Shown here piece after piece: positions 6,626-29,835 of a stretch of DNA of 64,000 nt (position 1 is the first letter of the stretch; every line of letters starts with the position of its first letter). The DNA comes from Patescibacteria group bacterium (GTDB lineage: Bacteria; Patescibacteriota; WWE3; UBA101185; UBA10185). The position numbers and the translations under genes were made by a program. The notes under the pieces were generated by a model. That model was not told the origin of the DNA. It did not search any database and worked only from the letters and a program-made list of their open reading frames with translations. Location: contig JBMORU010000001.1 in the NCBI GenBank assembly GCA_049322215.1, forward strand, positions 708,023-772,022, read 5' to 3'.

Positions 6626-6979
6626 TTAGGCAAGTGCCCAGGCTGCAATTTCTTCTGCTTTTTTGTTGATTTTAGTCGCAGTATTAAGTTTACCCGTGTG
6701 CACAACCCATCTGTTACCTTTTTTTCCTCCACGCGGAAGATTTTCAGTATAAGCATCGGTTGCAAATACTGCTCCTGGATCAGTTGGGCTGTTTTGTACT
6801 GCAAACAACCTTACGGTGTCGCTTTTCCCAACAATTTTTGTACCAATACCTTGCTTACGTAGCATTTCAACAATAGTAATGGCCAGTAACGGAGTTTCGT
6901 TTGTTACAACTACATGCACAATTTTTTGGTTGCGCAGCTTTTTTTCTCGCTCTAATAGCTTTTCATATGGAATCGCCAT
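6626..6979 (-). CDS. Hypothetical protein
   Basis: ORF reading into the ORF below. No motif recognised. Confidence 0.4.
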   Translation of the reverse strand: MAIPYEKLLEREKKLRNQKIVHVVVTNETPLLAITIVEMLRKQGIGTKIVGKSDTVRLFAVQNSPTDPGAVFATDAYTENLPRGGKKGNRWVVHTGKLNTATKINKKAEEIAAWALA

Positions 6980-9534: not shown

Positions 9535-10935
9535 ATGTGGTCATCAGACAATACGCAATTTGGATTTGCATTTATTCCTTTGCTTGTTTTTACTATTGCC
9601 ATAGTTTTTGTATTGTACGTCTCGCGAGACTATGTAAACAGACAAACAAGCCCATTAAGTTCATACACTTCCCGTGAAGAACTAACAAAACCAATAAAGT
9701 CTGACTATAATCTTTCTTTTCTAAAAGTGTCGGGAAAAAATATTACGGATGGCTCAGAAAAAATAGTTTATTTGAGAGGCTTTCAGGGATTAGGATTTTA
9801 TCCTATTCCATCAGATCTTTATATGGCAGCTATAAACAAAAAGGGCATAAGTTTTGCTAGCTTGGACTCAGCTGCCAAGGATTTAAACCAGTACACAATA
9901 ACAGAATACGATATTAATGAAATTAAAAGTACTGGTGCAAATGTGGTTAGAGTTTGGTTTGTTCTGCACGAAATAGAAAAAGAGCCTTACAAATACAGCA
10001 AAGAAGCACTTGATCTTTTAGAAACAACCATAAATGAGTTTGGGGATGCTGGGATTTATACAATCTTGGTATTAGGAAAAGTTGGACAAAATTCTTATCC
10101 CCCATCAAATCCCTATTTAAACCAAGGAATTAGTTTTTGGGAAAATACAGACAATATTCAAGACAGAACAGTAAAACTTTGGGGTATCTTGGCCGAGAGA
10201 CTTCAGAATAATCCAAACGTGGCAGCGTATGATGTAATAAATGAACCTGTTGCGCCTTCTAAAGATGCCTTAAGGTCTTATTATGAAGACGCAATCACTG
10301 AAATTAGAAAATATGATCTCAATCACATCTTAATTTTAGAAACAGATAATTTGCATAAAACAGAATATCAGCTTGGGGGGAAATATGAAGATACAAATTT
10401 AGTAGGAAGTTTTCATTTTTACTTTCCGCATGACTTTACGCTATCATCTGGGACTGAATATATGATTGACGGTCTTGAATACCCTGGTGGTACTTTTTGT
10501 GCACATGCAAACCGTCCTGGTTGTGAAAAAATTACATGGACAAAAAATACTCTTGAGGAAATCCTAATACAGGCACTTGCTGCCGAAGACTTTCAAGATA
10601 TTCCAGTTTTTGTTGGGGAATTTGGTGCGAACTCAGTTAGAGATGATACTGGGGCTCTTAAGTGGGTAGAAGACACCTTTTCTCTACTAAACAAATATAA
10701 TCTTCACTACACTTATCATAATTACCGTTTGCCCAATACCCATGGCTATTATTTTGTTCAAAACCCCGAAAAGCAGAAAAAGATAGAACGGGTAGTAAAA
10801 GAAATTTCTAGTGGGAACATTAAGTTTAGCGAAATTACAGAAGAGCAGAAAGAGTTATTAAAAACAGAGAATAGCTATAAATTACGCCCTGGGATTAAAG
10901 AAATAGTAACTAAAGGTTTTAAAAACCAACTATAG
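9535..10935 (+). CDS. Glycoside hydrolase family 5-like (clan GH-A) enzyme, membrane-anchored
   Basis: N-terminal TM. The sequences YDVINEP (acid/base NEP) and VFVGEFGAN (nucleophile Glu) are the two GH-A catalytic signatures. Confidence 0.6.
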   Translation: MWSSDNTQFGFAFIPLLVFTIAIVFVLYVSRDYVNRQTSPLSSYTSREELTKPIKSDYNLSFLKVSGKNITDGSEKIVYLRGFQGLGFYPIPSDLYMAAINKKGISFASLDSAAKDLNQYTITEYDINEIKSTGANVVRVWFVLHEIEKEPYKYSKEALDLLETTINEFGDAGIYTILVLGKVGQNSYPPSNPYLNQGISFWENTDNIQDRTVKLWGILAERLQNNPNVAAYDVINEPVAPSKDALRSYYEDAITEIRKYDLNHILILETDNLHKTEYQLGGKYEDTNLVGSFHFYFPHDFTLSSGTEYMIDGLEYPGGTFCAHANRPGCEKITWTKNTLEEILIQALAAEDFQDIPVFVGEFGANSVRDDTGALKWVEDTFSLLNKYNLHYTYHNYRLPNTHGYYFVQNPEKQKKIERVVKEISSGNIKFSEITEEQKELLKTENSYKLRPGIKEIVTKGFKNQL

Positions 10936-12791: not shown

Positions 12792-14078
12792 ATGACAATC
12801 TATGGAAAAAAGATCCCTGTTTGGGTGATCGCTTTACTTGGCCTTGGTTTGATGTTTTGCTTTGCTGCGGCATTTTTTGCTGGAGTATTGCTCACTAATA
12901 ATGGAGCCTTGCCTGAGAACCCTCTTGTACAGGTTGGCGCTTCTCCGGCACCACGATCTCAAACTGTAAGTGCAGAAGACGTAACCTTAGCCGGTTCTGG
13001 AGCAATTGAAACCGCCGTGTGCATTCATGTGGACTTCACATGGGATGATGGCAAAGACAAGTCTATGCTTGAGACTGCGAAACAAATTGGTGCTGATTGT
13101 GTTCGTGTAGGCAGTAGCTGGCGCTTGCAAGAAAAAGTCCAAGGTGCGTACGAAACCAATTGGTACGTGCCCGCTTTGGTGCAACGCTTGGTTTGGGCAC
13201 AAGAAAACGACCTTGCTGTGATCTTGATTCAAGGTCAAACACCTTGTTGGGCGTCGGCAGACCCCAATAAACCTGAGTGTGTAAACGCTGCGGGCGAAGG
13301 TGTTGAAGCTGGTTTTGATTTTTGGTGTCCTGCTCCCGAGCATTTTGGTGCTTTTGCGCAGTCAGTAAGGTTTTTGGTTGAAAACAATCCTGGGTACATT
13401 GTTGCCGTTGAGGTATGGAACGAACCCAATGATGCTGCTTTTTGGTGTGGAAACCCTGACCCGGCTGCTTACACCGAGCTTGTTCGCCAAACTGCTGTTG
13501 CTTTAGAAGGTCTTGATGTGCAGATTTATGGCGGTGCAATTGCTGGCGCTGACACTAACTTTACGCAAGCACTGTTTGATGCGGGTATTGGCAATCATAT
13601 TGACGCTTTTACCTTGCATGCCTACAGTGGAAGCTTGCCGCCTAGTAATTGTGGTAATCCTGAACGGTCGTTTCTCTGCGGAATCCAAGCAGTTCATGAG
13701 GTTGCAGTTGAAAATGGTTTCGAAGGCCCCCTAGTAGTAACCGAAGTTGGATGGCCTACAAACCCGATTGAGGTTTACAACCTTGTGGGGCAAGATGAAA
13801 CAGAGGATACACTTTCAATCGATGTGGATAGCTTTGTATTGGGTGAAGATGGCTTTGTTACCGAACCCACTCAAGCGCAGTACCTAGTAAACGCAATCAA
13901 ACTAGCTAACCAAATGCCGTTTGTTCAGGGAGTTGTGCTTTTTGAAATGCTTGATCGCCCTGGTGAAGGTGGCGCCCCCTCAATTTGGCGTGACCAAAAC
14001 TACGGCCTGTTTGACCTCAATGGAGATCCAAAGGAAGCAGCGTTTGCTTTGCAGGAAATTTTGGTTGAAGACGAATAA
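12792..14078 (+). CDS. Clan GH-A glycoside hydrolase, membrane-anchored, encoded on a GC-rich segment
   Basis: RBS AAGGAG. N-terminal TM. VWNEPN acid/base motif and VTEVGWPT nucleophile motif. GC-rich, so it produces several spurious antisense ORFs. Confidence 0.55.
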   Translation: MTIYGKKIPVWVIALLGLGLMFCFAAAFFAGVLLTNNGALPENPLVQVGASPAPRSQTVSAEDVTLAGSGAIETAVCIHVDFTWDDGKDKSMLETAKQIGADCVRVGSSWRLQEKVQGAYETNWYVPALVQRLVWAQENDLAVILIQGQTPCWASADPNKPECVNAAGEGVEAGFDFWCPAPEHFGAFAQSVRFLVENNPGYIVAVEVWNEPNDAAFWCGNPDPAAYTELVRQTAVALEGLDVQIYGGAIAGADTNFTQALFDAGIGNHIDAFTLHAYSGSLPPSNCGNPERSFLCGIQAVHEVAVENGFEGPLVVTEVGWPTNPIEVYNLVGQDETEDTLSIDVDSFVLGEDGFVTEPTQAQYLVNAIKLANQMPFVQGVVLFEMLDRPGEGGAPSIWRDQNYGLFDLNGDPKEAAFALQEILVEDE

Positions 14079-14199: not shown

Positions 14200-15774
14200 C
14201 TATGTTTTATGGTGGCCGTAGTTCAGTGGTAGAGCGCCTCCCTGTGGAGGAGGATGTCGCGGGTTCGAATCCCGTCGGCCACCCCATAGTATGCTTATCC
14301 GAATGCTTCCTAATTCTATTAAGTCCTTTATTCCTGGTGTTAAGTGAAATACTAGTTTTTTATCCTCAGTAACCTCTAGCTTCTCAAAGAAGATACCGAT
14401 GTAAATTCTCTTTTCATCGAGCGTAGCTTCCTTATATGCTTTACCAATATTTTCGGCTAACTTAAGGAATTTACTAAGCTCATTCAGCTTTTCATTGTAA
14501 TCTCTATCCACTTTTTTGAGCTTTTGCCCTATTTCCCTGAGATCGTTGGTATATCGCACAGCTATACTTTCATATTTATCTGAATCTATAGTCCTTCTTA
14601 AGAACCTATCATCTTCTAGCTCTCTTAAAGCATGTTCAATATTGGTTTTAGAAGCTATTAGGCTTTTCGTTTCTGAATCTACCATTGATCTGTTTACATG
14701 TATAACCTCTTTCGCTTGCGTCATTACCTCGTTTACGTACTCTTCGCTTAGCTGGATTTTTTCCATATATTTTTCCACTTGCTTTTCAAGTTTGTCACAA
14801 AGTATATAAGTTCCCCTATGCCTGGTTGAGTCGGAGTACCAACACGACCTTACACCCTGCTTATTTGTATGGTATTCAGCATATGCTAGACCTTGGGTCT
14901 TTCTGTAAAAAAGAATGCCTCTTAAAAGAAAATCATGCTTTCTTTTTCTACAAGCGTAGTGGTTACGTTTTGCCATAACCAGTTGAACATGGTCAAACAA
15001 CTCTTGGCTTATAAGTGGTTCATATTTGCCTTGGTGTATTTCTTCCTTCCATCTAAATTTCCCTATGTAATATGGATTTTTCAATATATGTTCAATAAGC
15101 CTGGCTGTGCACCGCTTAGCTCTTTTAGGTTTTATTCCCTTGTCATTAAGCATTTCTGCGAGGTACTCATATGAATATTCACCAGTAGAGTACATGTTAA
15201 ATAGCTGAATAATGTAGTTTTTAGTCTTTGGGTTGGGGATAACAATCTTTTTATCAAAGTTAGAACTTGGTGTATCGGGATTTTCCACGTTTTTATAGCC
15301 AATGGGTGCCTCCTTAGGAGGCCACCCAGCTTTGGCTTTTTGGTACATGTTATCACTAGTTACACGTTTGATTTTATCTGACTTATACTGTGCTATAGCT
15401 GCCATCATTGAATCTAGGAACATACCGTCGGGGTTAGATAGATCAATTTCCATTGTGGCATAGATTAATTTAACACCCTTTTCCATCAGTGTTTCTCGAA
15501 GAGCAGTATGTTCCTTAAGGTTTCTCATGAGCCTGTCATTTTCGTAGGTTATAATGGCATCAGGCTTATCTTCGTCAACTGCAGCCATTAGTAATTTATA
15601 CTCGGACCTCTGTGTGTTAGTTCCAGTCTTTCCCTTATCAATAAAGGTTCTGATAATACTGTATCCATTGATTTTAGCCCAATTGTTTAATGCTATTTCC
15701 TGAGCTTCTAAACTTAGACCCTTGTCTTTCTGTTTCTTTGTTGAAACACGAATATACGCTAATGCTGTTTTCAT
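14200..15774 (-). CDS. Large serine recombinase (resolvase catalytic domain, recombinase domain and zinc-ribbon/coiled-coil)
   Basis: N-terminus AYIRVSTKKQ with the catalytic Ser and a length of about 500 aa. The last roughly 25 codons are antisense to tRNA-His with no intervening stop. Confidence 0.8.
   Translation of the reverse strand: MKTALAYIRVSTKKQKDKGLSLEAQEIALNNWAKINGYSIIRTFIDKGKTGTNTQRSEYKLLMAAVDEDKPDAIITYENDRLMRNLKEHTALRETLMEKGVKLIYATMEIDLSNPDGMFLDSMMAAIAQYKSDKIKRVTSDNMYQKAKAGWPPKEAPIGYKNVENPDTPSSNFDKKIVIPNPKTKNYIIQLFNMYSTGEYSYEYLAEMLNDKGIKPKRAKRCTARLIEHILKNPYYIGKFRWKEEIHQGKYEPLISQELFDHVQLVMAKRNHYACRKRKHDFLLRGILFYRKTQGLAYAEYHTNKQGVRSCWYSDSTRHRGTYILCDKLEKQVEKYMEKIQLSEEYVNEVMTQAKEVIHVNRSMVDSETKSLIASKTNIEHALRELEDDRFLRRTIDSDKYESIAVRYTNDLREIGQKLKKVDRDYNEKLNELSKFLKLAENIGKAYKEATLDEKRIYIGIFFEKLEVTEDKKLVFHLTPGIKDLIELGSIRISILWGGRRDSNPRHPPPQGGALPLNYGHHKT
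14211..14286 (+). tRNA. tRNA-His (anticodon GUG) with the extra 5' G(-1)
   Basis: Cloverleaf with G-1. Acceptor GTGGCCG/CGGCCAC, anticodon loop CTGTGGA, T-loop GGTTCGAATCC, discriminator C, CCA. Confidence 0.85.
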
Positions 15775-15778
15775 CGTC

Positions 15779-16216
15779 TTATTCTCCTTTGCTTTTTAAT
15801 TTGCTTATTGTTTCGGCGTACTTGTGTATTACAGCTTCAAGATAGTTCTTTGCCTCTGTAATCAGTTGGATGATGCCCTCTGTCTCACCGTGTTCAGTGA
15901 AGATGTACTTAGTGTTTTTTGGTAGAAACACATTTACCAGAGCTTGGTAACTAAGGTAGTCAGGTGCTAGCCTTTTTATATCTGTGCAGAGCACAGTTCT
16001 GATGTCTGGTCTTTCCTTCAAAAAGCTCACCATTCTCTTAAACCCAGTACCTTCATGTTCATAGTAGTTATCTCCATTCACAGTGTCAGCAAATACCTCT
16101 ACTGGTTCTAGGCCTTCTCTAACACAAAAATTTATACATTCTCTTCTTTGTTTTGCGACACTATTTTTAGTACCTTTACTGTTTAAATAGATAACGCATT
16201 CTTTATTGTTGTTCAT
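15779..16216 (-). CDS. Resolvase N-terminal-domain-like protein (possibly degenerate; accessory to the recombinase)
   Basis: VIYLNSKGTKNS...Q resembles the YxRVS(T)xxQ region. Ends 4 bp upstream of the recombinase start. Confidence 0.4.
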   Translation of the reverse strand: MNNNKECVIYLNSKGTKNSVAKQRRECINFCVREGLEPVEVFADTVNGDNYYEHEGTGFKRMVSFLKERPDIRTVLCTDIKRLAPDYLSYQALVNVFLPKNTKYIFTEHGETEGIIQLITEAKNYLEAVIHKYAETISKLKSKGE

Positions 16217-16565: not shown

Positions 16566-16934
16566 TTACTTTGACTTCTTATAAATGTTGTTATCTCTTA
16601 TCAGACCCTCCAGATAATAGATATTTGATCTGACTCCTATTTTTCTCTCAGTTCCGTTCTTCTTATTTGCTACGTGTACTACACCGCCTCTTTTAACTTT
16701 TAACAGTTTTTCTTTTTCTAGGATTCTTACTAAACGTCTGATTTGTCTTACGGAAAGCCCCAGATCAGTTGATATCAGCTCTTGACTAGGCCAGCAGTGA
16801 TCTTTGCCTCCTAGTTTTTTAATCAGGTACTCCAGCAGTAGTTTTGCGCCACTAGGAATGTTTTTGTTGCTTAGAACGTTTGCTACTTTTTTTATATCCC
16901 TCACGTAGTACTTCTCTTGTACCTTGTCTTTCAT
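16566..16934 (-). CDS. Winged helix-turn-helix DNA-binding protein (mobile-element regulator or replication-organiser type)
   Basis: CWPSQELISTDLGLSVRQIRRLVRILEKEKLL is the classic 'CWPS...G.S.R.I.R...L...GLI' wHTH signature. Confidence 0.5.
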   Translation of the reverse strand: MKDKVQEKYYVRDIKKVANVLSNKNIPSGAKLLLEYLIKKLGGKDHCWPSQELISTDLGLSVRQIRRLVRILEKEKLLKVKRGGVVHVANKKNGTERKIGVRSNIYYLEGLIRDNNIYKKSK

Positions 16935-18059: not shown

Positions 18060-19514
18060 ATGTTCGAACAAGCTTTTAGAAATATAGACAATGCCTTATG
18101 GAAAGACCCTGGTTGTTCTAGTGAATTAGACTATGTGGAGCAAACCTCTTGGATTTTGTTTTTGAAGTACCTAGATGATTTGGAGAAAGATAAAGCTACA
18201 GAAGCTTCTTTAGCAGGTCGTTTATTTGGGCCTATTATTTTGCCAGAATTTCAATGGGATTCATGGGCATGTCCTAAGGGAAAAGATGGGAAAATTGATT
18301 ATAACAAGGCTAGAACAGGAGATGACTTGCGAGATTTTGTTAACGACTCATTGTTTCCATATCTAAGAAAGTTTAAGGCCAATGCTGAAAGCGCAGATAC
18401 TATCGAATATAAGGTAGGTGAAATCTTCAGCGAATTAAAAAACAAAGTACAAAGTGGTTACACCTTAAGAAATGTACTGGATATTGTGGATACCATGAGT
18501 TTTAGGTCACAAGAAGAAAAGCATGAACTATCTTATCTTTATGAAGCAAAAATACAAAACATGGGCAATGCTGGTCGTAATGGCGGTGAATACTACACGC
18601 CACGACCACTAATTAAAACTATTGTTAAAGTTGTAGCTCCTAAAATAGGGGATAGAGTTTATGACGGTGCCGTTGGGTCAGCAGGATTTTTGGTAGAGGC
18701 ATACGAGTATCTTAAAAAGACAAAGGATTTAACCACTAAAGACATAGAAACTCTACAAAGAAGTACCTTCTATGGTAAAGAGAAGAAGTCTTTAGCTTAC
18801 ATCATAGGCATAATGAACATGATTTTGCACGGGATTGAAGCTCCAAACATTATCCATACAAATACTCTTTCAGAAAACATTACAGATATACAGGAAAAAG
18901 ATAGGTATGACATAGTTCTAGCAAATCCTCCTTTTGGTGGTAAGGAAAGACAAGAGGTTCAACAAAACTTTCCTATTAAAACAAGTGAAACAGCCTTTTT
19001 ATTCCTACAACACTTCATAAAGATACTTAAGGCAGGAGGTAGTGCAGGTGTTGTTATAAAAAACACCTTTTTGTCTAACACAGACAATGCATCTACAGCA
19101 CTAAGACAACATTTACTAGAAACATGCGATTTACACACAATACTAGATTTACCAAGTGGCGTATTTACAGGTGCAGGTGTAAAAACAGTCGTTTTGTTTT
19201 TTAAAAAAGGCTCTCCAACTAAAAAGGTTTGGTACTACAGATTAAATCTAGCTCGTAATTTGGGCAAAACAAATCCTTTAAATGAAAAAGACTTAGTTGA
19301 TTTCGTTGAGTTACAAAAAACAAAGGCGGATAGTGATAGCTCTTGGAGTGTTGATGTAAAAGACATAGATCAAAAGACATTTGATTTGTCGGTAAAAAAT
19401 CCAAATTCAGTTGAAGAGGTGATTTTACGCGATCCTCAAGAAATACTGGCAGAAATTAGGGAACTAGATGAGGAAAGTAGGAAAATTTTAGATAACATTG
19501 CAGGACTAATTTGA
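18060..19514 (+). CDS. hsdM: Type I restriction-modification system, N6-adenine DNA methyltransferase subunit M
   Basis: GEYYTPRPL (motif I region) and NPPFGG (motif IV). Confidence 0.85.
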   Translation: MFEQAFRNIDNALWKDPGCSSELDYVEQTSWILFLKYLDDLEKDKATEASLAGRLFGPIILPEFQWDSWACPKGKDGKIDYNKARTGDDLRDFVNDSLFPYLRKFKANAESADTIEYKVGEIFSELKNKVQSGYTLRNVLDIVDTMSFRSQEEKHELSYLYEAKIQNMGNAGRNGGEYYTPRPLIKTIVKVVAPKIGDRVYDGAVGSAGFLVEAYEYLKKTKDLTTKDIETLQRSTFYGKEKKSLAYIIGIMNMILHGIEAPNIIHTNTLSENITDIQEKDRYDIVLANPPFGGKERQEVQQNFPIKTSETAFLFLQHFIKILKAGGSAGVVIKNTFLSNTDNASTALRQHLLETCDLHTILDLPSGVFTGAGVKTVVLFFKKGSPTKKVWYYRLNLARNLGKTNPLNEKDLVDFVELQKTKADSDSSWSVDVKDIDQKTFDLSVKNPNSVEEVILRDPQEILAEIRELDEESRKILDNIAGLI

Positions 19515-20717
19515 ATGTCATTAGGTAATTGGACATCACATAAGTTAAAAGATTTGTGCTATAAAATTACTGATGGTAGCCATAACCCACCAAAAGGTGT
19601 ACCTTCAAGTCCTTATTTAATGCTAAGTTCCAAGAATGTTAATAACGATCTGCTAACTTTTGATAAGCCTAGGTACTTAGACGAAAAGAATTATATTGCA
19701 GAGAATAAACGTACACAGGTGCAGGAAGGAGACGTGCTTCTGACTATTGTAGGGACTATTGGTAGAGCTGCAGTTATTTCTAAAGGAGTAGAAAATTTAA
19801 CATTCCAACGTAGTGTTGCAGTACTAAAGCCTAGAAAGCAACTTGTAAGCTCTAGGTTTTTAATGTATTTGTTGCAGTTTAATTTTGAGTTGTTAAATAA
19901 AAACGCCAGGGGGGTTGCTCAAAAGGGTATTTACTTAAGACAACTGAATGATCTATCAGTTTATATACCAGATATTCCCACTCAAGATCATATAGTTAGT
20001 GTACTTGATGATGCATTTGTCGATTTAGAAAAGGTGTCCTTCAAATTAGTGGAAAACAGCAAAAATGCAGAGGAACTGTTTTTCTCGCATCTCAATCAAG
20101 CTTTTACTGCACCACTTGATGATAATTGGGTTAGGACACCACTTAGCGCCCATGTAAGGTTCATAGATTACAGAGGAAGGACCCCGAAAAAAACTGAATC
20201 TGGGTTGAAGTTAATTACAGCAAAAAATGTGAAAATGGGCTATTTGCAAAATGCGCCTGAGGAATTTGTTGACGAAAATATCTACAGTTCTTGGATGGTC
20301 CGTGGCATTCCATTAATGGGGGATATTCTTTTTTCCACTGAAGCTCCGATGGGAAATGTTGCTACACTCCATACAAATGAAAAGGTGGTTTTTGCTCAGA
20401 GAATTATCATACTTCAACCTGACAGAAGCATTATAAACCCTGAATTTCTCAAATTTATGCTCATGTCATCTTATTTTCAGAATCTATTGTCAGCTAATGG
20501 TACTGGCGCAACTGTCAAAGGTATTAAATCCAGTATTTTAAAAAGGCTTCCAATAGTATTTCCCAAATCTTTAGGAGAACAGAAAAATCTAGCAGAAAAG
20601 TTCACTCGTTTATCTAGCCAATGCGATGTGCTTAAGGATTCATATAACCACAAGAAAACTATTGTGGAGGAACTAAAAAAATCAATCCTAAACAAAGCCT
20701 TTAGCGGTGAGCTATAA
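19515..20717 (+). CDS. hsdS: Type I restriction-modification system specificity subunit S (two target-recognition domains)
   Basis: Start abuts the hsdM stop. Duplicated TRD architecture with conserved spacer repeats. Confidence 0.75.
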   Translation: MSLGNWTSHKLKDLCYKITDGSHNPPKGVPSSPYLMLSSKNVNNDLLTFDKPRYLDEKNYIAENKRTQVQEGDVLLTIVGTIGRAAVISKGVENLTFQRSVAVLKPRKQLVSSRFLMYLLQFNFELLNKNARGVAQKGIYLRQLNDLSVYIPDIPTQDHIVSVLDDAFVDLEKVSFKLVENSKNAEELFFSHLNQAFTAPLDDNWVRTPLSAHVRFIDYRGRTPKKTESGLKLITAKNVKMGYLQNAPEEFVDENIYSSWMVRGIPLMGDILFSTEAPMGNVATLHTNEKVVFAQRIIILQPDRSIINPEFLKFMLMSSYFQNLLSANGTGATVKGIKSSILKRLPIVFPKSLGEQKNLAEKFTRLSSQCDVLKDSYNHKKTIVEELKKSILNKAFSGEL

Positions 20718-20742
20718 TAAATTTAATTAATTTTTAATATTT

Positions 20743-23061
20743 ATGAACGAAGCAGAAACAAGAGCAGAATACATTGATCCTATGCTAACTAATGCAGGTT
20801 GGGGAGTTGTTGACGGCTCTAAAGTGCTTCGAGAACATCATTTAACAGCAGGAAGAATCCAAGTAGGCGGTGTCAGAGGTAAAAAAGACATTGCTGACTA
20901 TGTTTTAGTATATAAAAACCAAAAACTAGCCATTGTAGAAGCCAAAAAGTTTGATTCTTTACCTACAGAAGGTGTTGCACAAGCCAAGCTTTATGCTGAG
21001 AAGCTTCAACTTTCTTATACATATTCAACCAATGGTCAAAAAGTATATGAGATATGCATGGATACAGGTAAAGAAGACTATATCGATGCTTTTCCTACTC
21101 CTGACGAGCTTTGGAGTAGAGTACATACGGAGCAAAATACATGGAAAGATAAGTTTTCAGCTATACCATTCGAAGATTTTGGTGGTACAAAGCAACCTAG
21201 ATATTATCAGGAAAATGCAACCAACAACGCACTAAATGCCATAGCTGATGACAAAGACCGTATATTGCTAACTTTAGCTACAGGCGTAGGTAAAACATAT
21301 CTTGCATTCCAGATTGCTTGGAAATTATTTCATGCTAGATGGACATTACAAAAAGATGGAGCAAGAAGACCTCGTATACTCTTTCTAGCTGATAGAAATA
21401 TATTAGCCGATCAAGCATTTAACTCCTTCTCGGCTTTTCCAGAAGACGCACTAATAAGAATTAATCCGCTAGATATAAGAAAAAAAGGTGCTGTCCCTAA
21501 AAATGGAAGTATATTCTTTACTATTTTTCAAACCTTTATGAGTGGGCAAGACAATACACCTTACTATGGCGACTATCCTCCTGATTTCTTTGATTTAATA
21601 ATAATTGATGAATGCCATCGTGGTGGTGCTAATGACGAATCTAACTGGCGTGGGATTATGGAATACTTTTCGCCTGCGGTTCAACTAGGTTTAACAGCTA
21701 CACCTAAAAGAAAAGATAACGTGGATACCTATCGTTATTTTGGTGAGCCTGTGTACACATATTCACTTAAGGAAGGTATTAATGACGGATTTTTGACACC
21801 ATTTAAGGTTAAGCGGATTAGAACAACACTAGATGAATATATCTATACCTCTGATGACAAAGTTGTTGAAGGTGAAGTAGAGCAAGGAAAGGTCTACACA
21901 GAACTAGATTTTAACCGAACTATAGAAATTGAAGAACGTGAACGTACCAGAGTAAGAATATTCATGGATGAAATCAACCAAAACGAAAAGACATTGGTGT
22001 TTTGTGCAACTCAAGGGCATGCCTTGTTAGTAAGAGACTTAATCAATCAACTAAAAGAAAGCAAAGATCCTAACTATTGTGTGCGAGTTACTGCTAATGA
22101 TGGGTTTTTAGGTGAACAATATCTAAGGGAATTTCAAGACAACGAAAAAACTATACCTACAATACTTACAACCTCACAAAAACTATCAACTGGTGTTGAT
22201 GCTCGCAATGTTAGAAATATTGTCCTTATGCGTCCTATAAATACAATGGTTGAATTTAAACAAATTGTAGGTAGGGGAACTAGATTATTTGACGGCAAGG
22301 AGTATTTTACAATTTATGACTTTGTTGACGCTTATAAGATGTTTTTAGATGACGAATGGGATGGCGAGCCTGTTGATGAAACTACAATCGATGAAGGTGG
22401 TGGCAGAGAAAAACCAAAAGGTGGTAGAAAAGGTCCAATAGACCCGCCTCCAACACCTCCAGAGCCTGGTCCAGAACCAGTTAAAAGATTAAAAATAAAA
22501 CTAGCCGATGGTAAAGAGCGAGAAATACAGCACATGGTATCAACGTCATTTTGGAGTCCAGATGGCAGGCCTATTTCTGCAGAAGAATTTTTAAAGGAAA
22601 TGTTTGGCAAGCTACCTGAGTTTTTCCAAAGCGAGGAAGAACTACGCTCAATTTGGGCAAATCCAACCACGAGAGCACAATTTTTAGACAAGCTAGAGGA
22701 GCAAGGTTACGGAAAAGCAGAACTAGAGAACCTTAAAAAGGTAGTAAATGCCGAAAATAGCGACTTATTTGATGTTTTGTCTTATGTCTCTTATGCTATT
22801 ACTCCAATCACTAGAGTTGAACGAGTAGCTAAAACCACACCTTTAATGCTGTCAGGTTTAAACGAAAGACACATTGAGTTTTTAGAGTTTGTGTTATCCA
22901 AATATGTTGAAATTGGGGACGAAGAATTGGAAGAAAAGAAGTTGCCAATACTATTAAATTTGAAGTACCAAGCTATTGCAGACGCTGAAAAACTACTAGG
23001 TGGTGTGGAAAAGATTAGAGACACATTTTTTAACTTCCAAAAAGCTTTGTATTCTGCATAA
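20743..23061 (+). CDS. hsdR: Type I restriction enzyme R subunit (short, 772 aa)
   Basis: N-terminus MNEAETRAEYIDPML, Walker A TGVGKT, DECH box (IIDECHRG), helicase C-terminal QIVGRGTR. Confidence 0.8.
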   Translation: MNEAETRAEYIDPMLTNAGWGVVDGSKVLREHHLTAGRIQVGGVRGKKDIADYVLVYKNQKLAIVEAKKFDSLPTEGVAQAKLYAEKLQLSYTYSTNGQKVYEICMDTGKEDYIDAFPTPDELWSRVHTEQNTWKDKFSAIPFEDFGGTKQPRYYQENATNNALNAIADDKDRILLTLATGVGKTYLAFQIAWKLFHARWTLQKDGARRPRILFLADRNILADQAFNSFSAFPEDALIRINPLDIRKKGAVPKNGSIFFTIFQTFMSGQDNTPYYGDYPPDFFDLIIIDECHRGGANDESNWRGIMEYFSPAVQLGLTATPKRKDNVDTYRYFGEPVYTYSLKEGINDGFLTPFKVKRIRTTLDEYIYTSDDKVVEGEVEQGKVYTELDFNRTIEIEERERTRVRIFMDEINQNEKTLVFCATQGHALLVRDLINQLKESKDPNYCVRVTANDGFLGEQYLREFQDNEKTIPTILTTSQKLSTGVDARNVRNIVLMRPINTMVEFKQIVGRGTRLFDGKEYFTIYDFVDAYKMFLDDEWDGEPVDETTIDEGGGREKPKGGRKGPIDPPPTPPEPGPEPVKRLKIKLADGKEREIQHMVSTSFWSPDGRPISAEEFLKEMFGKLPEFFQSEEELRSIWANPTTRAQFLDKLEEQGYGKAELENLKKVVNAENSDLFDVLSYVSYAITPITRVERVAKTTPLMLSGLNERHIEFLEFVLSKYVEIGDEELEEKKLPILLNLKYQAIADAEKLLGGVEKIRDTFFNFQKALYSA

Positions 23062-23441: not shown

Positions 23442-23996
23442 TTACAATCCCCAGATCGCTGTAGTTTGATTATCGCAAAACATTGTAAGTGTTTGTGGCT
23501 TCATGCTGAATGGATTAAATCTGTTTGAGTCTTTGTCTACAAACTTTGCATATCCAAGTGTTAATGTTTCTCCTATCTCTACACCAAACACCTCTTGTGG
23601 TTGTGCAAACTTTGGGTACGAAGGGAAGTAGTAGGCGTTATTCAAGCTCATGTAGCAATTTTCCCATGCAAAGTTGTTAAGGTTTGTAAGTTTCACTTGA
23701 GCATCGTTGTGTAGTAACTCAGACTGGGTTTGTCTTTTTGTAGGCTTAGGAGTTGGTGCCGTTTGAGGTGTTTCAGCAGGTAGGCTTGATGGGTCAACGA
23801 ATAACATTGTTACAAAACCCGACAGTGCTCCAATTATAAGTAGTAGCATGAAGCCTTTAATTATGGTTTCAAGGAACGAACCTTTTTTCTTTTTTACTGG
23901 GGAGGTGTTTGAATTTTGTACTGAGGAATTACGAATTTGAGCACGAAATTGCTCTTCTTCTAGAATCTTTTGCTTTTCAGTTTCTGTTAATGCCAT
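23442..23996 (-). CDS. Hypothetical single-pass membrane protein
   Basis: The ORF track begins at a TTG (24056). I prefer the internal ATG giving MALTETEKQ... One TM helix. Confidence 0.4.
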   Translation of the reverse strand: MALTETEKQKILEEEQFRAQIRNSSVQNSNTSPVKKKKGSFLETIIKGFMLLLIIGALSGFVTMLFVDPSSLPAETPQTAPTPKPTKRQTQSELLHNDAQVKLTNLNNFAWENCYMSLNNAYYFPSYPKFAQPQEVFGVEIGETLTLGYAKFVDKDSNRFNPFSMKPQTLTMFCDNQTTAIWGL

Positions 23997-24030
23997 CTTG
24001 ACCTTTCCAGAGTTGTTGAATAAATACAAA

Positions 24031-24143
24031 AAGGGACAACTCTTCTGTAACGTCAAGCCGGGAAGCCATTAGTCCTAGGAAAGAGTTGCCCCTTTTTAGG
24101 ACTAATGGCATTGCCATAAGTTTAATTAATAGCTTCCCGGCTT
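24031..24143. repeat. Nested triple inverted-repeat structure (complex stem-loops)
   Basis: Outer pair AAGCCGGGAAGC/GCTTCCCGGCTT, middle pair CATTAGTCCTAG/CTAGGACTAATG, inner pair GGGACAACTCTT/AAGAGTTGCCCC. Confidence 0.55.
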
Positions 24144-24190
24144 ATTTAGTTATATGTGGATTATATAATATAAAAATCAAAAGTGAGAGC

Positions 24191-24484
24191 TTATTCGTCA
24201 ATAGGAAATAAAGAAAGAGAAGTAAATCTTTTTGAAGCTTTCATTATAGGTTCCAGCTCCTCACACAGAGTGTTAAAGTCCTGACTTGTTTTTTCTAATG
24301 ATTTATAGAAGCAGTTTATACAATATCTGAAATTTCCCATACCCCTACAGCGTTTAATATCTACAGCGTAATTTCCTGCAAGCAGTTGCTCATTGCATAT
24401 TTTACATTTGGATACTTTTTTGACTTTAACCAACTTTGGTTTTCCCAGATTACTGCTGATCAAAGAGGGTGGTGTTTTGGACAT
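24191..24484 (-). CDS. Small zinc-ribbon protein (two CxxC pairs)
   Basis: CKIC...CRG...CINC pattern. Its start overlaps the 3' end of the helicase gene by 35 nt. Confidence 0.45.
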   Translation of the reverse strand: MSKTPPSLISSNLGKPKLVKVKKVSKCKICNEQLLAGNYAVDIKRCRGMGNFRYCINCFYKSLEKTSQDFNTLCEELEPIMKASKRFTSLSLFPIDE

Positions 24485-26528
24485 CTTTCTTTATAATCTT
24501 GCTTTGTTTTGCAAGAATCTCATCTCTTAATTTTCTACTAATCTCAGGTAGCGACCTAATGATTTCTTTAAACTCTGTTATTGACCACTGGTTACGCTCT
24601 TTGTTGCCAAGACTATATTTTATCTTCTGATTTAGCAAAATTTTTAGTGCCACTAAATTATTTGAAGCATTTGGTAGCTGGTAGCCATATTTAAAAGGAA
24701 TCTCGATTCCGGTAACTTCTAACTTGCATATATTTAGTATGGCTTTCACATTTCTCGATACGTCTGCGTCTAGTCGTGCCCTTAATCCCTGCCATTCCTT
24801 TTGAGGTTGTACTACTATTTTAGGCATTGCCCTCACAGTGTCCATTCCCTTATGACGGCTTTCTAAAGTTTTTTCAATTAATTCCTCTGTAATATCTACT
24901 CCTAAGTTAGCGTAGAATGATCTGATTTCTTTTTTGAGTAATTCCTCATCATCAAGAAAATCTTCAGTAAATAGTTGATCCACTATTTCCTTGTTTACAA
25001 CCACCCTTTCTTCCATTCTTTGAATTGTCCTACCTTCTTTTATATCTTCTCGTGGAATGCTAGGTTCCGGACTTGGTTCTCCCCCCAGGACACTTGCCCA
25101 AAATTCTTCGTCGTCGCTATCAAATGCTCTAAACTCTTCGAATCTGTTATCAAGATTCATGCCTATATGGGTCACTATATACCCGTAGTTATCTGGGTGC
25201 CCGGGAGAATTCTGTACTACTACACGTAGTATTCTGCCTACGAATTGTATGTATGGGGATAAAGATCTAAATGGGTTGAAGATTGCTGCTACACTTAGCT
25301 TTGGATGATCAAAACCTTCTCCAAGCATTTGTACTTGCACAATGCAATCCAAAAGCCCTGCTTTAAGCTTTCTTTTTACCTCCTCCTGTTTTCCTGGATC
25401 CATTTTGGAATGTATTACCTCAGTTGTGTATCCGCGTTCATTGTACAAACTGCATATTTTTTCTGCATGTGAAATTGACATAGCTACTGCTATTATTTGG
25501 TGTTGTGTGCCTGTTAGTCTTAGCTCCTCTAGTTTTCCCAGGCTGTTGTCAACAATACTTATGTTGCAGGCTTCTGAGGTAGCTATCCCTCTACTAAACC
25601 AATCCTCTTCCTTCATTTTAAGAATCTCTTCTAGGGTGTATTCCTTCGTGCTTTTTTCATCCGTAAATTTCAATTCTATAGTATCAGGGGCAACATAATA
25701 TGATGCTAATCGTTTAATAAATCCTTTGGTAGTAGCACTTTTAAAAGAATATCTATAAACTAACTTACCTTCAATTTCCTGTTTATCAGATCTAAATGGT
25801 GTCGCAGTTAAGAATAGTTTTTTAGCGTTAGTAAACTTATTAAAAACCATAGTCCAGCTCTTCGCAGGGCTGTGGTGTGCCTCATCAACAATTATCATAT
25901 CGAAAAAGTCTGATTCAAACTTGTCTAACCATTTATTTGGGTTTGTTGCAAGCTGTTGCACGTTTGATACTACGAAGTGAGATTCTTGGCAAATGGAGAG
26001 GTTAGAATTCTCAAGTGTTGTTACGTAGGGACCTGATAGCATGTCCTCTTCTCTTAATACGGAAGTTTTTTTCCAAAAACACTTAGAATGATTAAGATCT
26101 AGCGTATCCCTAAGTTCGTCTCTTATTGTTAGATTAGGTGAAAGAACAAGCACCCTACCAGATGACACCCCGAATGGGACTATTGCTGCAGTTCCAGATT
26201 TTCCACATCCCACAGGCAATTGTACAATTGCTGGTGTAACTTCATTACCACTATCAAAATAATCTCTTACTGCAACATATGCTTCCATCTGTGGTTCTCT
26301 TAAGGAGTAATTGTCTTCAATGTAGGCATGTGTGCTCTTGAAAAAATCCTTTATGCCTTTGCTTCTTAATACCCACTCATCTAGTAATTCCCTGTTGAAT
26401 ACCCAACGGTTCTTAACCTTGTTTACTGGAATTTTTCCGTTTTGTGCAAGGCCATAAAGCGTAGTTTTCCCTATGCTAAGGTATTTAGAAGCTTGTTCAA
26501 GTGTCAGCCAGTTATCGTTAGTTATCAT
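24450..26528 (-). CDS. Excisionase-type HTH fused to an SF2 DEAH-box helicase (ResIII-like N-lobe plus helicase C-lobe) with an uncharacterised C-terminal domain of about 200 aa
   Basis: N-terminus LTLEQASKYLSIGKTTLYGLAQNGKIPVNKV (HTH_17-like). Walker A GCGKSG, DEAH (IVDEAHH), TAT motif III, motif VI QFVGRILR. Confidence 0.7.
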   Translation of the reverse strand: MITNDNWLTLEQASKYLSIGKTTLYGLAQNGKIPVNKVKNRWVFNRELLDEWVLRSKGIKDFFKSTHAYIEDNYSLREPQMEAYVAVRDYFDSGNEVTPAIVQLPVGCGKSGTAAIVPFGVSSGRVLVLSPNLTIRDELRDTLDLNHSKCFWKKTSVLREEDMLSGPYVTTLENSNLSICQESHFVVSNVQQLATNPNKWLDKFESDFFDMIIVDEAHHSPAKSWTMVFNKFTNAKKLFLTATPFRSDKQEIEGKLVYRYSFKSATTKGFIKRLASYYVAPDTIELKFTDEKSTKEYTLEEILKMKEEDWFSRGIATSEACNISIVDNSLGKLEELRLTGTQHQIIAVAMSISHAEKICSLYNERGYTTEVIHSKMDPGKQEEVKRKLKAGLLDCIVQVQMLGEGFDHPKLSVAAIFNPFRSLSPYIQFVGRILRVVVQNSPGHPDNYGYIVTHIGMNLDNRFEEFRAFDSDDEEFWASVLGGEPSPEPSIPREDIKEGRTIQRMEERVVVNKEIVDQLFTEDFLDDEELLKKEIRSFYANLGVDITEELIEKTLESRHKGMDTVRAMPKIVVQPQKEWQGLRARLDADVSRNVKAILNICKLEVTGIEIPFKYGYQLPNASNNLVALKILLNQKIKYSLGNKERNQWSITEFKEIIRSLPEISRKLRDEILAKQSKIIKKDVQNTTLFDQQ

Positions 26529-26622
26529 ATGCTATCAAATGATAACACAGATCATTTGTATGTCAACGACTCTGGGAATTTCTATGTGTAATCTATAAAA
26601 CTGGTCTTTGCTATTTTATTCT

Positions 26623-26735: not shown

Positions 26736-26909
26736 ATGTCTAACTCTCAAATTGCCTACACGGGCAAACCGGCACCTAGGTCTGGACAGTACCGAGCTTC
26801 TGGTAGCAACGTAGAGATTACGTTGGTCAAGGGCAAACGTACACCCCCAAACAACATGGGTGTAAGACAAAAGTTCTTTTTAGTTGACAAGACTAAACAC
26901 AAGAACTAA
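26736..26909 (+). CDS. Small basic protein (57 aa) with a strong RBS
   Basis: GAAAGGAGCAAAAAA then ATG. Lys/Arg-rich. Confidence 0.3.
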   Translation: MSNSQIAYTGKPAPRSGQYRASGSNVEITLVKGKRTPPNNMGVRQKFFLVDKTKHKN

Positions 26910-27179
26910 TGTGAGGCAGGACTACCCAGGCATGTATTCTTAAGTTAACTTAGCCAAATCAAAACCACCCGTGTAAAACTCCCCATAAATGAAATCCTCC
27001 ACATACTGCCTCACTTTTGTAGCATATGTTGAAGGACCCCAATAAAAACACCCTTTAACAGCAACATTTCTAGCTATACCCAAATGTTAAATTGAACCCC
27101 AGTTAACCCTGTAGTATACTAGCCCCAAGTTATATTCCCGTTAATACTGGTCATCTGACACAAAGGAGAAAGCTATCTA

Positions 27180-27637: not shown

Positions 27638-28378
27638 ATGAATAGTAATGAAATTATAAACTTATATTCAAAAACTTTAAGAAAGGAATTACCCAATAAA
27701 GTAGAATCCACTTTTTTGTTCGGTATGTACCAGATGTTGTACAGAATGTTTGATGCATATAATACTGACTTCCATGTATTGCATGCCTCCAGTTCTGTGA
27801 GTGAATCTGGAAAAGTAGTGCTTTTTGGTGATGATGGGATTTTTTCTGTAGGAAAAACATTCTGTTCTTTACTTTTGGCTGCACAGTCGGGTATTTATGT
27901 TTCTGATGAGTATTGCTTACTCGATAAGTATACGTTAGGTATCTACGGTAACGGGGATATTCCACTAAACCTAAAAGGGGATACGGCAAGCTATATAATG
28001 GAAAGTTTTCAACTTAAGCTAAAGGACTCCAAAGTCATTTATGCTAACGATTACTTTAAAATCGTACCTAGCTCCAAGATAAATTATGTTGTAATACCCT
28101 ATATGTGTTCGGAAAAATCTAGTATTGAGCCTGTCTCAGACACGGATCAGAAAGCATCCATTGCTAAAGGTATAGTGTATGGACACAATGTTAAATTTTT
28201 ACAACCTGAATTTGATAGAGTTTCCATCTTACGTAATGAGCAAGGTAGCCTTGAATCCAATATGAGTACTCTTTTGAATGCTTACCCAGTACCAAATTTT
28301 CCTTTTGATATTGTGAGAATGTATGTGAAAAACCCAGATGATATTTTGCCCATGATTAAGGAAATTGAACATGTCTGA
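27638..28378 (+). CDS. HPr-kinase-like P-loop kinase domain protein
   Basis: VLHASSSVSESGKVVLFGDDGIFSVGKTFCSLLLAAQSGIYVSDEYCLLD follows the HprK C-terminal layout, including Walker A GIFSVGKT. Confidence 0.45.
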   Translation: MNSNEIINLYSKTLRKELPNKVESTFLFGMYQMLYRMFDAYNTDFHVLHASSSVSESGKVVLFGDDGIFSVGKTFCSLLLAAQSGIYVSDEYCLLDKYTLGIYGNGDIPLNLKGDTASYIMESFQLKLKDSKVIYANDYFKIVPSSKINYVVIPYMCSEKSSIEPVSDTDQKASIAKGIVYGHNVKFLQPEFDRVSILRNEQGSLESNMSTLLNAYPVPNFPFDIVRMYVKNPDDILPMIKEIEHV

Positions 28379-29105
28379 GCAAAACCCAAAACTATGTGTA
28401 GCTGAGTTCATAAATAGTATTAAAGGTATAGAGGATTCAAAAGTTCTAGGTGTAATTAGAACTGGGGAACTTGACTACAGTGATTTTGTACCAAACTGGA
28501 GTGATATAGACCTCTTTGTTATTTTGGAGGAAATGAATATAACTGCAGTGAAAACCATAACAAGGCTTACAAAAAGTCTTTCCAAAAAACACAACATTCA
28601 TATTGGCTTAGCTCTTATGACCTCGCAGGAGTACTATTCCACAACACCAGAAGTTAACTGCTTAAAGAATTTGTTAATGAAAAAAGGTTTTTCCTATGGG
28701 AGAAATAATATCGAGTGGGGTAATCTAACCCCCTGTGAATTAAATTTACCGAATAAACTTCCTAGTATGATAAGAGAAGTTAATTACTTCAAGGCATATA
28801 TGCGTAATGGACTTAGAGACCTAAACGAAGATGAGCTATTGCGCCGTATTATTAAGTGTGCTCACTATATTTTACTTTGTTCTCTTTTAGCGGAATATCC
28901 ATTACTGGTAGACACAAAACCAAATAAGGCATTATCTGAGGAACTATTCCATGACTTTGGGTTGGGGTTTTCCATTTACGATCATATTTCAGCAATTAAA
29001 AAAGAATTTGATACAATCGTTGATGCGGAATCGGAAGCGTATGTAATTGCCGATTATCTTGAAAAATTTTTAGTGTATTTTTATAGAAGAACAACAAATG
29101 TATAA
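28365..29105 (+). CDS. Pol-beta-superfamily nucleotidyltransferase
   Basis: GVIRTGELDYSDFVPNWSDIDLFV is the G[GS]x(9-13)DxD signature. Overlaps the kinase gene by 14 nt. Confidence 0.55.
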   Translation: MNMSEQNPKLCVAEFINSIKGIEDSKVLGVIRTGELDYSDFVPNWSDIDLFVILEEMNITAVKTITRLTKSLSKKHNIHIGLALMTSQEYYSTTPEVNCLKNLLMKKGFSYGRNNIEWGNLTPCELNLPNKLPSMIREVNYFKAYMRNGLRDLNEDELLRRIIKCAHYILLCSLLAEYPLLVDTKPNKALSEELFHDFGLGFSIYDHISAIKKEFDTIVDAESEAYVIADYLEKFLVYFYRRTTNV

Positions 29106-29835
29106 ACAAGCGGGTTTTTATGTAAGAAAAACTTTGGTTGAGGACATAGTATTTAATGTTTTTTTTACCGATCTGTCTAAACCGTGGATTATCTTTTTAC
29201 CTGGTCTTCCTCAATATATACACAAACACTGGTACCTTAAGGACTTGATTCAGGATTATTGTGTGCTTAATCCCTATTATCCAGGTTCTTTCCATTCGTT
29301 TGGGGAGTTCACGCCCACATCTTTTACTAAAACAGTAGACACAAGCATAACTTTGCTCGAAACTAAAGAATTTTTTGATCATTTTGAACAAAAAGCTTTT
29401 GAACATACAGGAGTTATTTCAGGGATTTGGGGATTGAGTTTTGGCGCTAATTTAATTGTAGAGTACCTGTCACGTACTAGTAATGTTGATATACCTGTTG
29501 TGATAGTCAGTCCCATGCTAAAAATGTCCATGCCTGTACTTAATGATTACTGGAAACAAAAAACTAGATTTCTAGCATCCCCCGTTTACCAAAACATATT
29601 TCGTGGATTAAATGATGCTGCATTTCGTGACTGGCTAAATTCTACTGAAGCCTTAGAGATTCCACCTAAAACTAGAGGTGTATTGTTATACGGGAAAAAC
29701 GACCGTTATATGGATGCAGACTTTTTAAGTGCCAAATTTTCTGCACTTGATATACATATTTTAGAAGAATATGCCCATGAGGTTGATAATATCATAGGCT
29801 TTTATGTAAAAAGTAACTATGCTATAAATAACTAA
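29098..29835 (+). CDS. Alpha/beta-fold hydrolase
   Basis: GLSFG nucleophile elbow (GxSxG). Overlaps the upstream gene by 8 nt. Confidence 0.45.
   Translation: MYKQAGFYVRKTLVEDIVFNVFFTDLSKPWIIFLPGLPQYIHKHWYLKDLIQDYCVLNPYYPGSFHSFGEFTPTSFTKTVDTSITLLETKEFFDHFEQKAFEHTGVISGIWGLSFGANLIVEYLSRTSNVDIPVVIVSPMLKMSMPVLNDYWKQKTRFLASPVYQNIFRGLNDAAFRDWLNSTEALEIPPKTRGVLLYGKNDRYMDADFLSAKFSALDIHILEEYAHEVDNIIGFYVKSNYAINN

Follow-up and report, generated by a model that had tools for sequence, protein, structure and literature searches.

A mobile gene pair of an HTH-fused helicase and a small zinc-finger protein as a candidate defence module in Patescibacteria

The gene pair and its proteins

The stretch of DNA analysed here, hereafter the window, is a 64-kilobase (kb) piece of a Patescibacteria group bacterium contig (JBMORU010000001.1, positions 708,023 to 772,022). 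It contains a pair of overlapping genes on the minus strand. The first (24450..26528) starts with ATG and encodes a 692-amino-acid (aa) protein in which a helix-turn-helix (HTH) domain precedes a helicase. The second (24191..24484), also starting with ATG, encodes a 97-aa protein with four cysteines, referred to below as the partner. The open reading frames (ORFs) overlap by 35 nucleotides (nt) at 24450-24484, and the two genes lie exactly where the original prediction, made from the sequence alone, had placed them. The overlap suggests that the partner is translationally coupled to the helicase. In homologous loci the start of the partner and the stop of the helicase mostly overlap by 4-20 nt. 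The whole cassette spans 2.4 kb, and its features are far beyond what chance would produce.

The helicase opens with an HTH_17 DNA-binding domain of the excisionase/MerR-like type (aa 7-55, 26364..26510, minus strand; Pfam 5e-12), which also matches the TIGR01764 excise model at 1.3e-9. A superfamily 2 (SF2) helicase/translocase core follows (25221..26309, minus strand). It consists of a first RecA-like lobe, RecA1 (ResIII, aa 74-246, Pfam 2.5e-24), a beta-rich insertion between the lobes (aa ~250-330) and a second lobe, RecA2 (Helicase_C, aa 333-436, Pfam 5.3e-14). The core had been predicted to be complete, and the named motifs are indeed present: VGCGKSG (aa 106-112), DEAHH (215-219), TAT (241-243) and QFVGRILR (428-435). 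Residues invariant in the family include K110, D215, E216, H218, T241-T243, Q428 and R432. Since all ~150 family-invariant residues, the catalytic ones included, are kept in the window copy, the gene looks functional.

Beyond the core, an acidic linker modelled at low confidence (aa 482-507) leads into a family-specific C-terminal domain of ~190 residues (aa ~505-692, 24453..25016, minus strand). In the AlphaFold2 (AF2) model this domain is mostly helical and ends in a helix of ~40 residues. The original prediction could name no motif here, and the domain is an orphan: aa ~440-692 match nothing significant in Pfam, and profile searches find no relative of the domain in the PDB. Only its own helicase family carries it, with 76 representatives (or fragments) among 1.84 billion proteins. 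No nuclease domain was detectable in the helicase in Pfam or NCBIfam scans.

The closest solved structures are archaeal XPB (XPB-Bax1 complexes included), Escherichia coli RadD and the XPB of TFIIH. SauUSI and type I HsdR rank lower, and all structure matches are limited to the RecA-like core. Every significant library match likewise covers just the generic helicase core or the HTH. Existing annotations are general or point to repair. An identical helicase is annotated as ‘DEAD/DEAH box helicase’ in a Patescibacteria metagenome-assembled genome, pipelines of the Joint Genome Institute (JGI) name homologues ‘DNA repair protein RadD’, and PHROG 16, ‘DNA helicase’, matches at 1.5e-56.

The cysteines of the partner form two CxxC pairs (C27/C30 and C55/C58, nt ~24311-24436). 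All four, together with P6, L8, G14 and P16, are invariant across 56 partner homologues. The conserved N-terminal peptide (TPSL...G.P) is basic and disordered in the AF2 model. The rest of the model (predicted local distance difference test score, pLDDT, 84) is a three-stranded sheet holding both CxxC pairs and a long helix (aa 56-88). When this model was searched with Foldseek, about 22 of the top 24 matches were the Zn1 and Zn2 fingers of PARP-1 and the zinc finger of DNA ligase III-alpha, at E ~0.1 and probabilities mostly of 0.8-0.99. At the sequence level the match is weak and in register: a profile of the partner family finds PARP-1 in the PDB at E 0.05, and pairwise hhalign comparison gives E 0.0035-0.0099 at a probability of 4-9%. 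The model has the layout of the zf-PARP fold, with a three-stranded sheet and a helix, one zinc site and ligand pairs ~25-30 residues apart. We therefore predict a PARP/Lig3-like fold for the partner, as a likeness and not as demonstrated membership of zf-PARP, and the partner may recognise DNA breaks. The original description as a ‘Cys4 zinc ribbon’ was right about the four cysteines, and ‘PARP/Lig3-like zinc finger’ describes the protein better than ‘ribbon’.

The partner has no match in PADLOC-DB v2 and none to a Pfam or nuclease family. Its own family was gathered by alignment from the homologous loci, a single-sequence word-indexed search having found just the query. It comprises at least 708 clusters, all of ~80-90 aa, unnamed and without a Pfam domain.

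Promoter, repeats and hairpin

A near-consensus sigma-70-type promoter lies directly upstream of the helicase gene (26539..26566, minus strand), with TTGACA, a spacer of 16 nt and a TG-extended TATCAT (11/12 matches). We infer its promoter function from a consensus-based scan in which promoter-like sites in the region were, in total, not above those in shuffled sequence. Only 11 nt separate the end of the -10 element from the ATG, which would make the mRNA nearly leaderless.

The same segment holds a putative operator (26523..26558, minus strand) made of three copies of a 9-mer conserved in the family, TATCATTTG. One copy is exact and in gene orientation (26536-26544). Two are inverted with one mismatch each, at 26550-26558 and, over the start codon, at 26523-26531. 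Between them, the copies extend over the spacer and -10 element of the promoter and over the start codon, and the arrangement over the promoter reads CAAATGAT-n7-ATCATTTG. The exact copy is the only one in the window.

The repeats are a property of the family. With at most one mismatch, TATCATTTG occurs in 72 of 100 windows upstream of HTH-bearing homologues, against 3.1% of 934 control windows drawn from the same loci; two or more copies occur in 45 of the 100, against 0.4% of controls. When the loci are collapsed into 35 clusters at 80% identity, one copy or more is present in 29 and two or more in 20. Homologues from different phyla often carry 2-3 copies at a spacing of 10 base pairs (bp; for example at -26, -16 and -6) or palindromes, and upstream of the gene the exact 8-mer ATCATTTG has ~60 times the density that it has in the rest of the loci. 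Relatives that lack the HTH behave differently, and paired copies are found upstream of none of the 16 examined. In place of TATCATTTG, the two HTH-bearing clades at 40% identity have their own tandem repeats just upstream: TGCATAAGGT twice in L038 (~9960-10000), and AATGTTGT three times in L015 (~6850-6960). Such clade-specific repeats fit an HTH that co-evolved with its operator.

Because the repeats co-vary with the presence and the type of the HTH, the fused HTH_17 domain probably binds the putative operator in its own promoter. The indirect evidence for this is strong, and it points to autoregulation of the pair. We also considered whether TATCATTTG is simply a -10-like TATCAT. This was rejected as the sole explanation, given the 2-3 copies or palindromes across phyla and their loss in HTH-less relatives.

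At the other end of the cassette, ~50 nt downstream of the partner gene and before the next ORF, lies a very stable hairpin (24054..24144, minus strand; -50.5 kcal/mol, z = -6.3). None of 200 shuffles folds as well. It is followed by no U-tract and has no Rfam match. It may be the terminator of the operon transcript, and could also be a processing site or a repeat element.

Conservation, spread and surroundings

Homologues of the helicase number in the thousands, among them hundreds of full-length proteins (~660-680 aa) that are 51-57% identical to it and share its three Pfam domains. Loci were collected by a contig scan (8 by a single protein) and by alignment-based scans of IMG/VR, metagenomes and plasmids. 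In the first 12, from Bacteroidales, Gammaproteobacteria, Gottesmanbacteria, Paceibacterota and long NCBI and JGI contigs, a small Cys4 gene lies immediately downstream in every case. The co-occurrence proposed as a check on the original prediction holds at larger scale. Among close homologues with at least 300 bp of downstream sequence, the partner directly follows the helicase at 93 of 94 loci, and in 33 of 34 clusters at 80% identity. The exception, L082 (9983-12234), has an unrelated 67-aa ORF in its place and is possibly a decayed copy. When 868 neighbouring ORFs were clustered all against all, no third gene proved to be conserved, so the unit is exactly two genes. The lack of a conserved neighbourhood had been named as something that would count against the prediction. 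This is the case only beyond the pair, which is itself conserved, and it is what one expects of a self-contained mobile cassette.

At ~50-56% identity the pair is found in Patescibacteria, Bacteroidales and Gammaproteobacteria, and on an alphaproteobacterial plasmid (L014); a T7-like prophage also carries a copy. Plasmids carry helicase homologues in Alphaproteobacteria and, at ~40% identity, in Actinomycetota. The families span at least five phyla, the ultra-small Patescibacteria included. A plasmid collection contains 372 matching records, and in 25 of them at least 80% of the helicase query is covered. A search of 50,697 phage genomes gave 1,139 matching records and no full-length homologue: none reaches 80% coverage, and the matches listed are confined to the core. 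The pair is a self-contained, horizontally mobile two-gene cassette with a patchy, cross-phylum distribution.

More distant helicases also have a small ORF downstream. This holds for the HTH-bearing clade at ~40% identity (Rhodococcus, Mycobacterium and Mesorhizobium plasmids) and for an HTH-less clade of ~600-620 aa at ~32-35% identity (Acinetobacter, Xanthomonas and Priestia plasmids, and proviruses). The HTH-less relatives are L026, L033-L035 and L037, which are IMG/VR proviruses, and L016, L027-L030, L032 and L036. The class of partner differs between clades. One variant has a C/H-type finger (RSHxCQANxxHR..GDxRLKVRNGRSWDHYCxxC), and another, in low-G+C loci, is ~105 aa long and has no cysteines. 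Since the class changes, the rule of a helicase with a small partner appears older than the specific zinc finger, which suggests partner swapping within an older architecture.

Among the 868 ORFs, small serine recombinases (9 loci) are the commonest neighbours, followed by tyrosine integrases (8 loci). At one locus an integrase lies immediately upstream on the same strand, and two ThsB-TIR genes, a TIR_2 protein and HipA adjoin the pair. Elsewhere a SMODS gene with a 4TM effector adjoins it, or a PIN/HTH toxin-antitoxin pair and an integrase lie beside it. Other copies lie within an integrase/primase integrative element, beside an integrase and a PLD-like gene, and in a metal-resistance element with a serine recombinase. 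On a Rhodococcus plasmid the neighbour is a Type ISP restriction-modification (RM) enzyme. A 16.6-kb Paracoccus plasmid has the pair flanked by a resolvase and an ArdC-like zincin metallopeptidase, near a MobQ relaxase and among RM genes. In L020 (8830-13098), a prophage-like region, the pair sits on the opposite strand, between the T7-type major capsid gene (Gp10A-like) and the T7 capsid-assembly (scaffold) gene. This insertion looks like a moron, and further insertions there, of HicB and AAA_14/DUF4143, make the region look like a hotspot for such cargo. A random sample of 146 neighbours within 4 kb includes integrases, resolvases, methyltransferases (~4 of the 146), LmuB, AbiLi, type IIG, BsoBI, HsdR and AbiEii-like AAA_21 ATPases. 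These contexts vary between loci, are rich in genes of mobile elements and defence, and are typical of accessory or defence cargo.

The surroundings in the window are of the same kind. A type I RM operon (18060-23061) lies 1.1 kb from the pair and is transcribed convergently with it. It comprises hsdM (18060-19514), hsdS (19515-20717) and hsdR (20743-23061), the last with HSDR_N and EcoEI_R_C matches. Further left, a large serine recombinase (14200-15774, minus strand) overlaps with its 3' end a tRNA-His gene (14212-14286, plus strand), the sole Rfam match between 13 and 28 kb. A shortened resolvase-like ORF (15779-16216) follows the recombinase. The tRNA-His/recombinase junction looks like the left edge of an element integrated at the tRNA gene. 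A scan of 14.1-27.4 kb for att-type direct repeats bounding the island returned just short repeats at chance level. The prediction that the pair is cargo of a recombinase island beside an RM system stands as regards the RM operon and the recombinase, and the right-hand border was not found.

Several other features were noted. The island encodes a 122-aa HTH_36 protein (16566-16934, minus strand) that matches phage replication-initiator/DnaD-like PHROGs (5e-9), and the island may carry in it a remnant replication function separate from the helicase pair. Just left of the tRNA-His gene the GC content rises locally to 0.48 from ~0.36 around it (12792-14078, plus strand); the rise coincides with a 428-aa ORF with a weak match to GH5 cellulases. 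Two flanking ORFs were considered as further members of the system and rejected. The downstream one (204 aa, 23442-24056) matches no family, and no third gene is conserved. The upstream one (57 aa, beginning MSNSQIAYTGKPAPRSGQYRASGSNVEITLVKGKRTPPNN; 26739-26912, plus strand) diverges from the helicase promoter region behind a strong AAAGGAG ribosome-binding site; it matches no Pfam or other family and is not kept beside homologues. Three consecutive ORFs of ~245 aa at 27638-29835 were compared as possible paralogues, and this was also rejected.

Comparison with known systems and possible function

The pair matches no known system in PADLOC-DB v2, Pfam (2025), NCBIfam (June 2026), PHROGs or the PDB. 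Pfam, NCBIfam and PHROGs hold no specific model for the partner or the C-terminal domain, and a literature search found no description of such a helicase/zinc-finger pair. The original prediction had likewise failed to place it among described helicase systems, and PADLOC-DB v2 assigns none. The best PADLOC matches, PbeA (63 bits, 4.5e-18), mREase_IV (1.5e-12) and REase_I (7e-10), all cover the motor only (aa ~72-437). HamB, GajB, DrmA, DrmD, DruE, ZorD and HmaA give no PADLOC match to the helicase at E <= 1. DpdF matches weakly in the RecA2 region (E 2e-5), the MAD1 model matches the HTH, and DISARM DrmD in NCBIfam scores 13.6 bits against a cut-off of 610. By these matches the pair falls outside Hachiman, Gabija, DISARM, Druantia, Zorya, Dpd, Hma, helicase-DUF2290 and the other PADLOC v2 systems. 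The YprA helicase is of a different family, marked by DUF1998 (PMC12458937).

The helicase core is most like that of archaeal XPB-Bax1 (Foldseek E 4e-11; phmmer 6e-13 to XPBII). There too, in a pair that serves nucleotide excision repair, an SF2 helicase of the double-stranded DNA translocase type works with the product of a separate gene, which determines the DNA structure on which the pair acts. Bax1, however, is a nuclease of ~400 aa and XPB has a damage-recognition N-terminal domain, whereas here the partner is a 97-aa zinc finger without a nuclease family match, the N-terminal domain is HTH_17 and the C-terminal domain is unrelated. The helicase falls outside XPB/Rad25 (TIGR00603, 16.9 bits against a cut-off of 328.7). 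The match to E. coli RadD (YejH) spans the whole core (aa 74-437; NCBIfam 1.4e-18, PDB 6jde 2.6e-10), but it covers only model positions 1-343 of 573, leaving the C-terminal part of RadD without a counterpart. At 66.6 bits it is far below the cut-off of 720 for the RadD equivalog (NF053632). To our knowledge RadD has neither an HTH nor an obligatory small partner gene.

The restriction translocases (type I HsdR, type III Res, Type ISP and the type IV enzyme SauUSI) and PbeA share the ResIII and Helicase_C motor and residence in defence islands. Unlike the type I, type III and ISP enzymes, the helicase has no HSDR_N, PD-(D/E)xK, Mrr-like or PLD nuclease domain, and no conserved methyltransferase or specificity gene lies beside the pair among the 868 neighbours. 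It scores 54 bits against 550 for EcoAI-type HsdR. Only positions 249-617 of the 672 in the PbeA model are covered, and PbeB-D or dnd partners are not conserved among the neighbours, which places the pair outside the phosphorothioate-dependent Pbe system (PbeABCD). The N-terminal 50 residues resemble HTH_17 regulators, MAD1 of the methylation-associated defence system (MADS) included, and predicted binding to tandem or inverted repeats is typical of that fold. In contrast to these regulators, the HTH here is fused to a helicase. The MAD1 match (49.1 bits, cut-off 80) is to the HTH only, and no other MAD genes are nearby. The partner differs from the PARP-1 Zn1/Zn2 and DNA ligase III-alpha fingers, which sense DNA nicks and breaks, in its ligand set, CCCC rather than CCHC. 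It is also a stand-alone protein, extended by an N-terminal peptide and a long C-terminal helix. In mode of action the nearest analogue of the gene pair would be XPB-Bax1 or a similar couple of sensor and motor, and in its surroundings the pair resembles a gene of defence islands. We rate it as an accessory or defence module built on a helicase, unprecedented in its partner and its regulation and uncharacterised within the libraries searched.

The reading that we consider most plausible, tentatively and as something short of probable, is an autoregulated, mobile defence or conflict cassette that combines a break sensor with an XPB/RadD-like translocase. The case for it is circumstantial and comes from genomic context. 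The HTH_17 domain would bind the promoter repeats and repress its own operon. The helicase would be an ATP-driven DNA translocase or unwinding enzyme, and the partner would recognise nicks, gaps and ends and dock on the orphan C-terminal helical domain. On foreign or replicating DNA with such structures, the partner would recruit or license the helicase, which would unwind or strip that DNA. Replication or packaging would thereby be halted, or host nucleases would gain access to the DNA, possibly at the cell's cost. A more specific version, which we think rather doubtful, is a previously undescribed, nuclease-free class of prokaryotic immunity in which a stand-alone PARP/Lig3-type finger senses nicks or ends of invading or replicating DNA and licenses an XPB/RadD-like translocase that bears an operator-binding HTH.

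Several points weigh against a defence role. The pair contains no defence-specific domain and no nuclease or other effector domain that we could find, so that a step of killing or blocking is wholly conjectural. Helicase and partner alike have their nearest structural relatives among DNA-repair proteins. Each of the partner's fold matches is weak (Foldseek E ~0.1; hhalign 4-9%), and they rest on a predicted model, and among the families listed for the 56 partner family members Pfam zf-PARP (PF00645) does not appear. The helicase model is moderate (pLDDT 76) and low across motifs V-VI. Many of the sampled neighbours are housekeeping or metal-resistance genes, and the enrichment of defence genes in the neighbourhood is qualitative, without a genome-wide baseline. 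Overall, the original reading of the pair as a candidate module is supported, while defence itself is circumstantial.

The repair relatives raise the possibility of a mobile accessory for DNA repair or damage tolerance, in which a nick or break sensor recruits an XPB/RadD-like helicase to damage or stalled forks. Plasmids carry umuDC-type or imuABC-type genes, which would be a parallel. The closest structures are all repair factors (XPB-Bax1, RadD, TFIIH XPB, and the PARP-1 and DNA ligase III fingers), JGI pipelines label homologues RadD, an ImuB/DnaE2/RecA-like cassette lies within 10 kb at one locus, and it would be no surprise for a repair helicase to lack a nuclease. Yet the helicase scores too low to count as RadD or XPB, the patchy distribution of the pair follows mobile elements (prophage moron, small plasmids) rather than the core genome, and a travelling autorepressed promoter is more typical of conflict or toxin-antitoxin modules. 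We consider a repair role unlikely. Another candidate role is toxin-antitoxin-like stabilisation of plasmids and islands, in which the helicase would be toxic when unrestrained, as in PsyrT/RqlH, the partner would neutralise it and the HTH would autoregulate. PsyrTA/RqlHI, which is listed among defence systems, is likewise a two-gene module of a helicase and a small protein borne on mobile elements. The overlapping genes and the repeats embedded in the promoter would be in keeping with a compact, autoregulated type II operon on mobile DNA, small plasmids and islands are carriers, and distant clades keep a small partner though its class changes. The sizes and gene order are atypical, however, with the gene of a 692-aa ‘toxin’ that bears the DNA-binding domain in first place and that of a 97-aa partner in second. 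The PADLOC match to PsyrT (1e-4, RecA2) is weak and covers generic Helicase_C only; the helicase groups with the XPB/RadD/ResIII clade rather than RecQ, and the partner is unrelated. A toxin-antitoxin role seems improbable to us, and since it would overlap with abortive-infection defence, the two readings are not exclusive.

Two further roles would tie the pair to its carriers. If the pair helps its element to replicate or excise, the HTH would bind iteron-like repeats and load the helicase as an initiator, or serve as a directionality factor of the excisionase type. The HTH_17 family is that of the excisionases, the tandem 10-bp repeats beside the gene resemble iterons, PHROG 16 is a ‘DNA helicase’ family, and integrases and resolvases are the commonest neighbours, one integrase lying immediately upstream on the same strand. 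But 2-3 repeats over a -10 element and start codon have the geometry of an operator, not of an origin with an AT-rich unwinding element, and integrases occur at fewer than 20% of loci. The plasmids have typed replicons of their own, and one copy of the pair sits inside a T7-like prophage structural module. The original prediction had named a replication module as the finding that would overturn it. No primase or Rep is conserved among the 868 neighbours, and no full-length homologue occurs in the 50,697 phage genomes. We know of no XPB/RadD-type SF2 helicase that acts as a replicative initiator, which also counts against this role, and we think it very unlikely. Least likely, to the point of being hardly credible, is an anti-defence or establishment function, for example the removal of host restriction or nucleoid proteins from incoming DNA. 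The Paracoccus plasmid, with its resolvase, ArdC-like gene and MobQ relaxase, would suit it, as would nick or end sensing on incoming conjugative DNA. That context is the single one in support, however, and most loci are chromosomal islands or metagenomic contigs without conjugation genes. Autorepression by an HTH encoded in the cassette is not the pattern described for leading-region genes, and the pair adjoins restriction systems of its own host.

Beyond the original prediction, the analysis adds the PARP/Lig3-like fold predicted for the partner, the conserved putative operator, a measure of how strict the pairing is and the lack of a detectable nuclease domain. If the pair is an immune system, it would add a widespread family, with thousands of helicase clusters and at least 708 partner clusters in at least five phyla. 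Its logic would be unlike that of Hachiman, Gabija, DISARM, Zorya or type I and III RM, having no nuclease and a PARP-1/ligase III-like sensor. A DNA-break-sensor fold of eukaryotic type would then already be at work in bacterial conflict systems, a bacterial precedent for zf-PARP-type sensing. With a promoter, an operator and a near-leaderless start of its own, the cassette would be portable across phyla. Whatever its function, the TATCATTTG putative operator, which co-varies with the fused HTH, makes the pair a testable case of a helicase that regulates its own mobile cassette.

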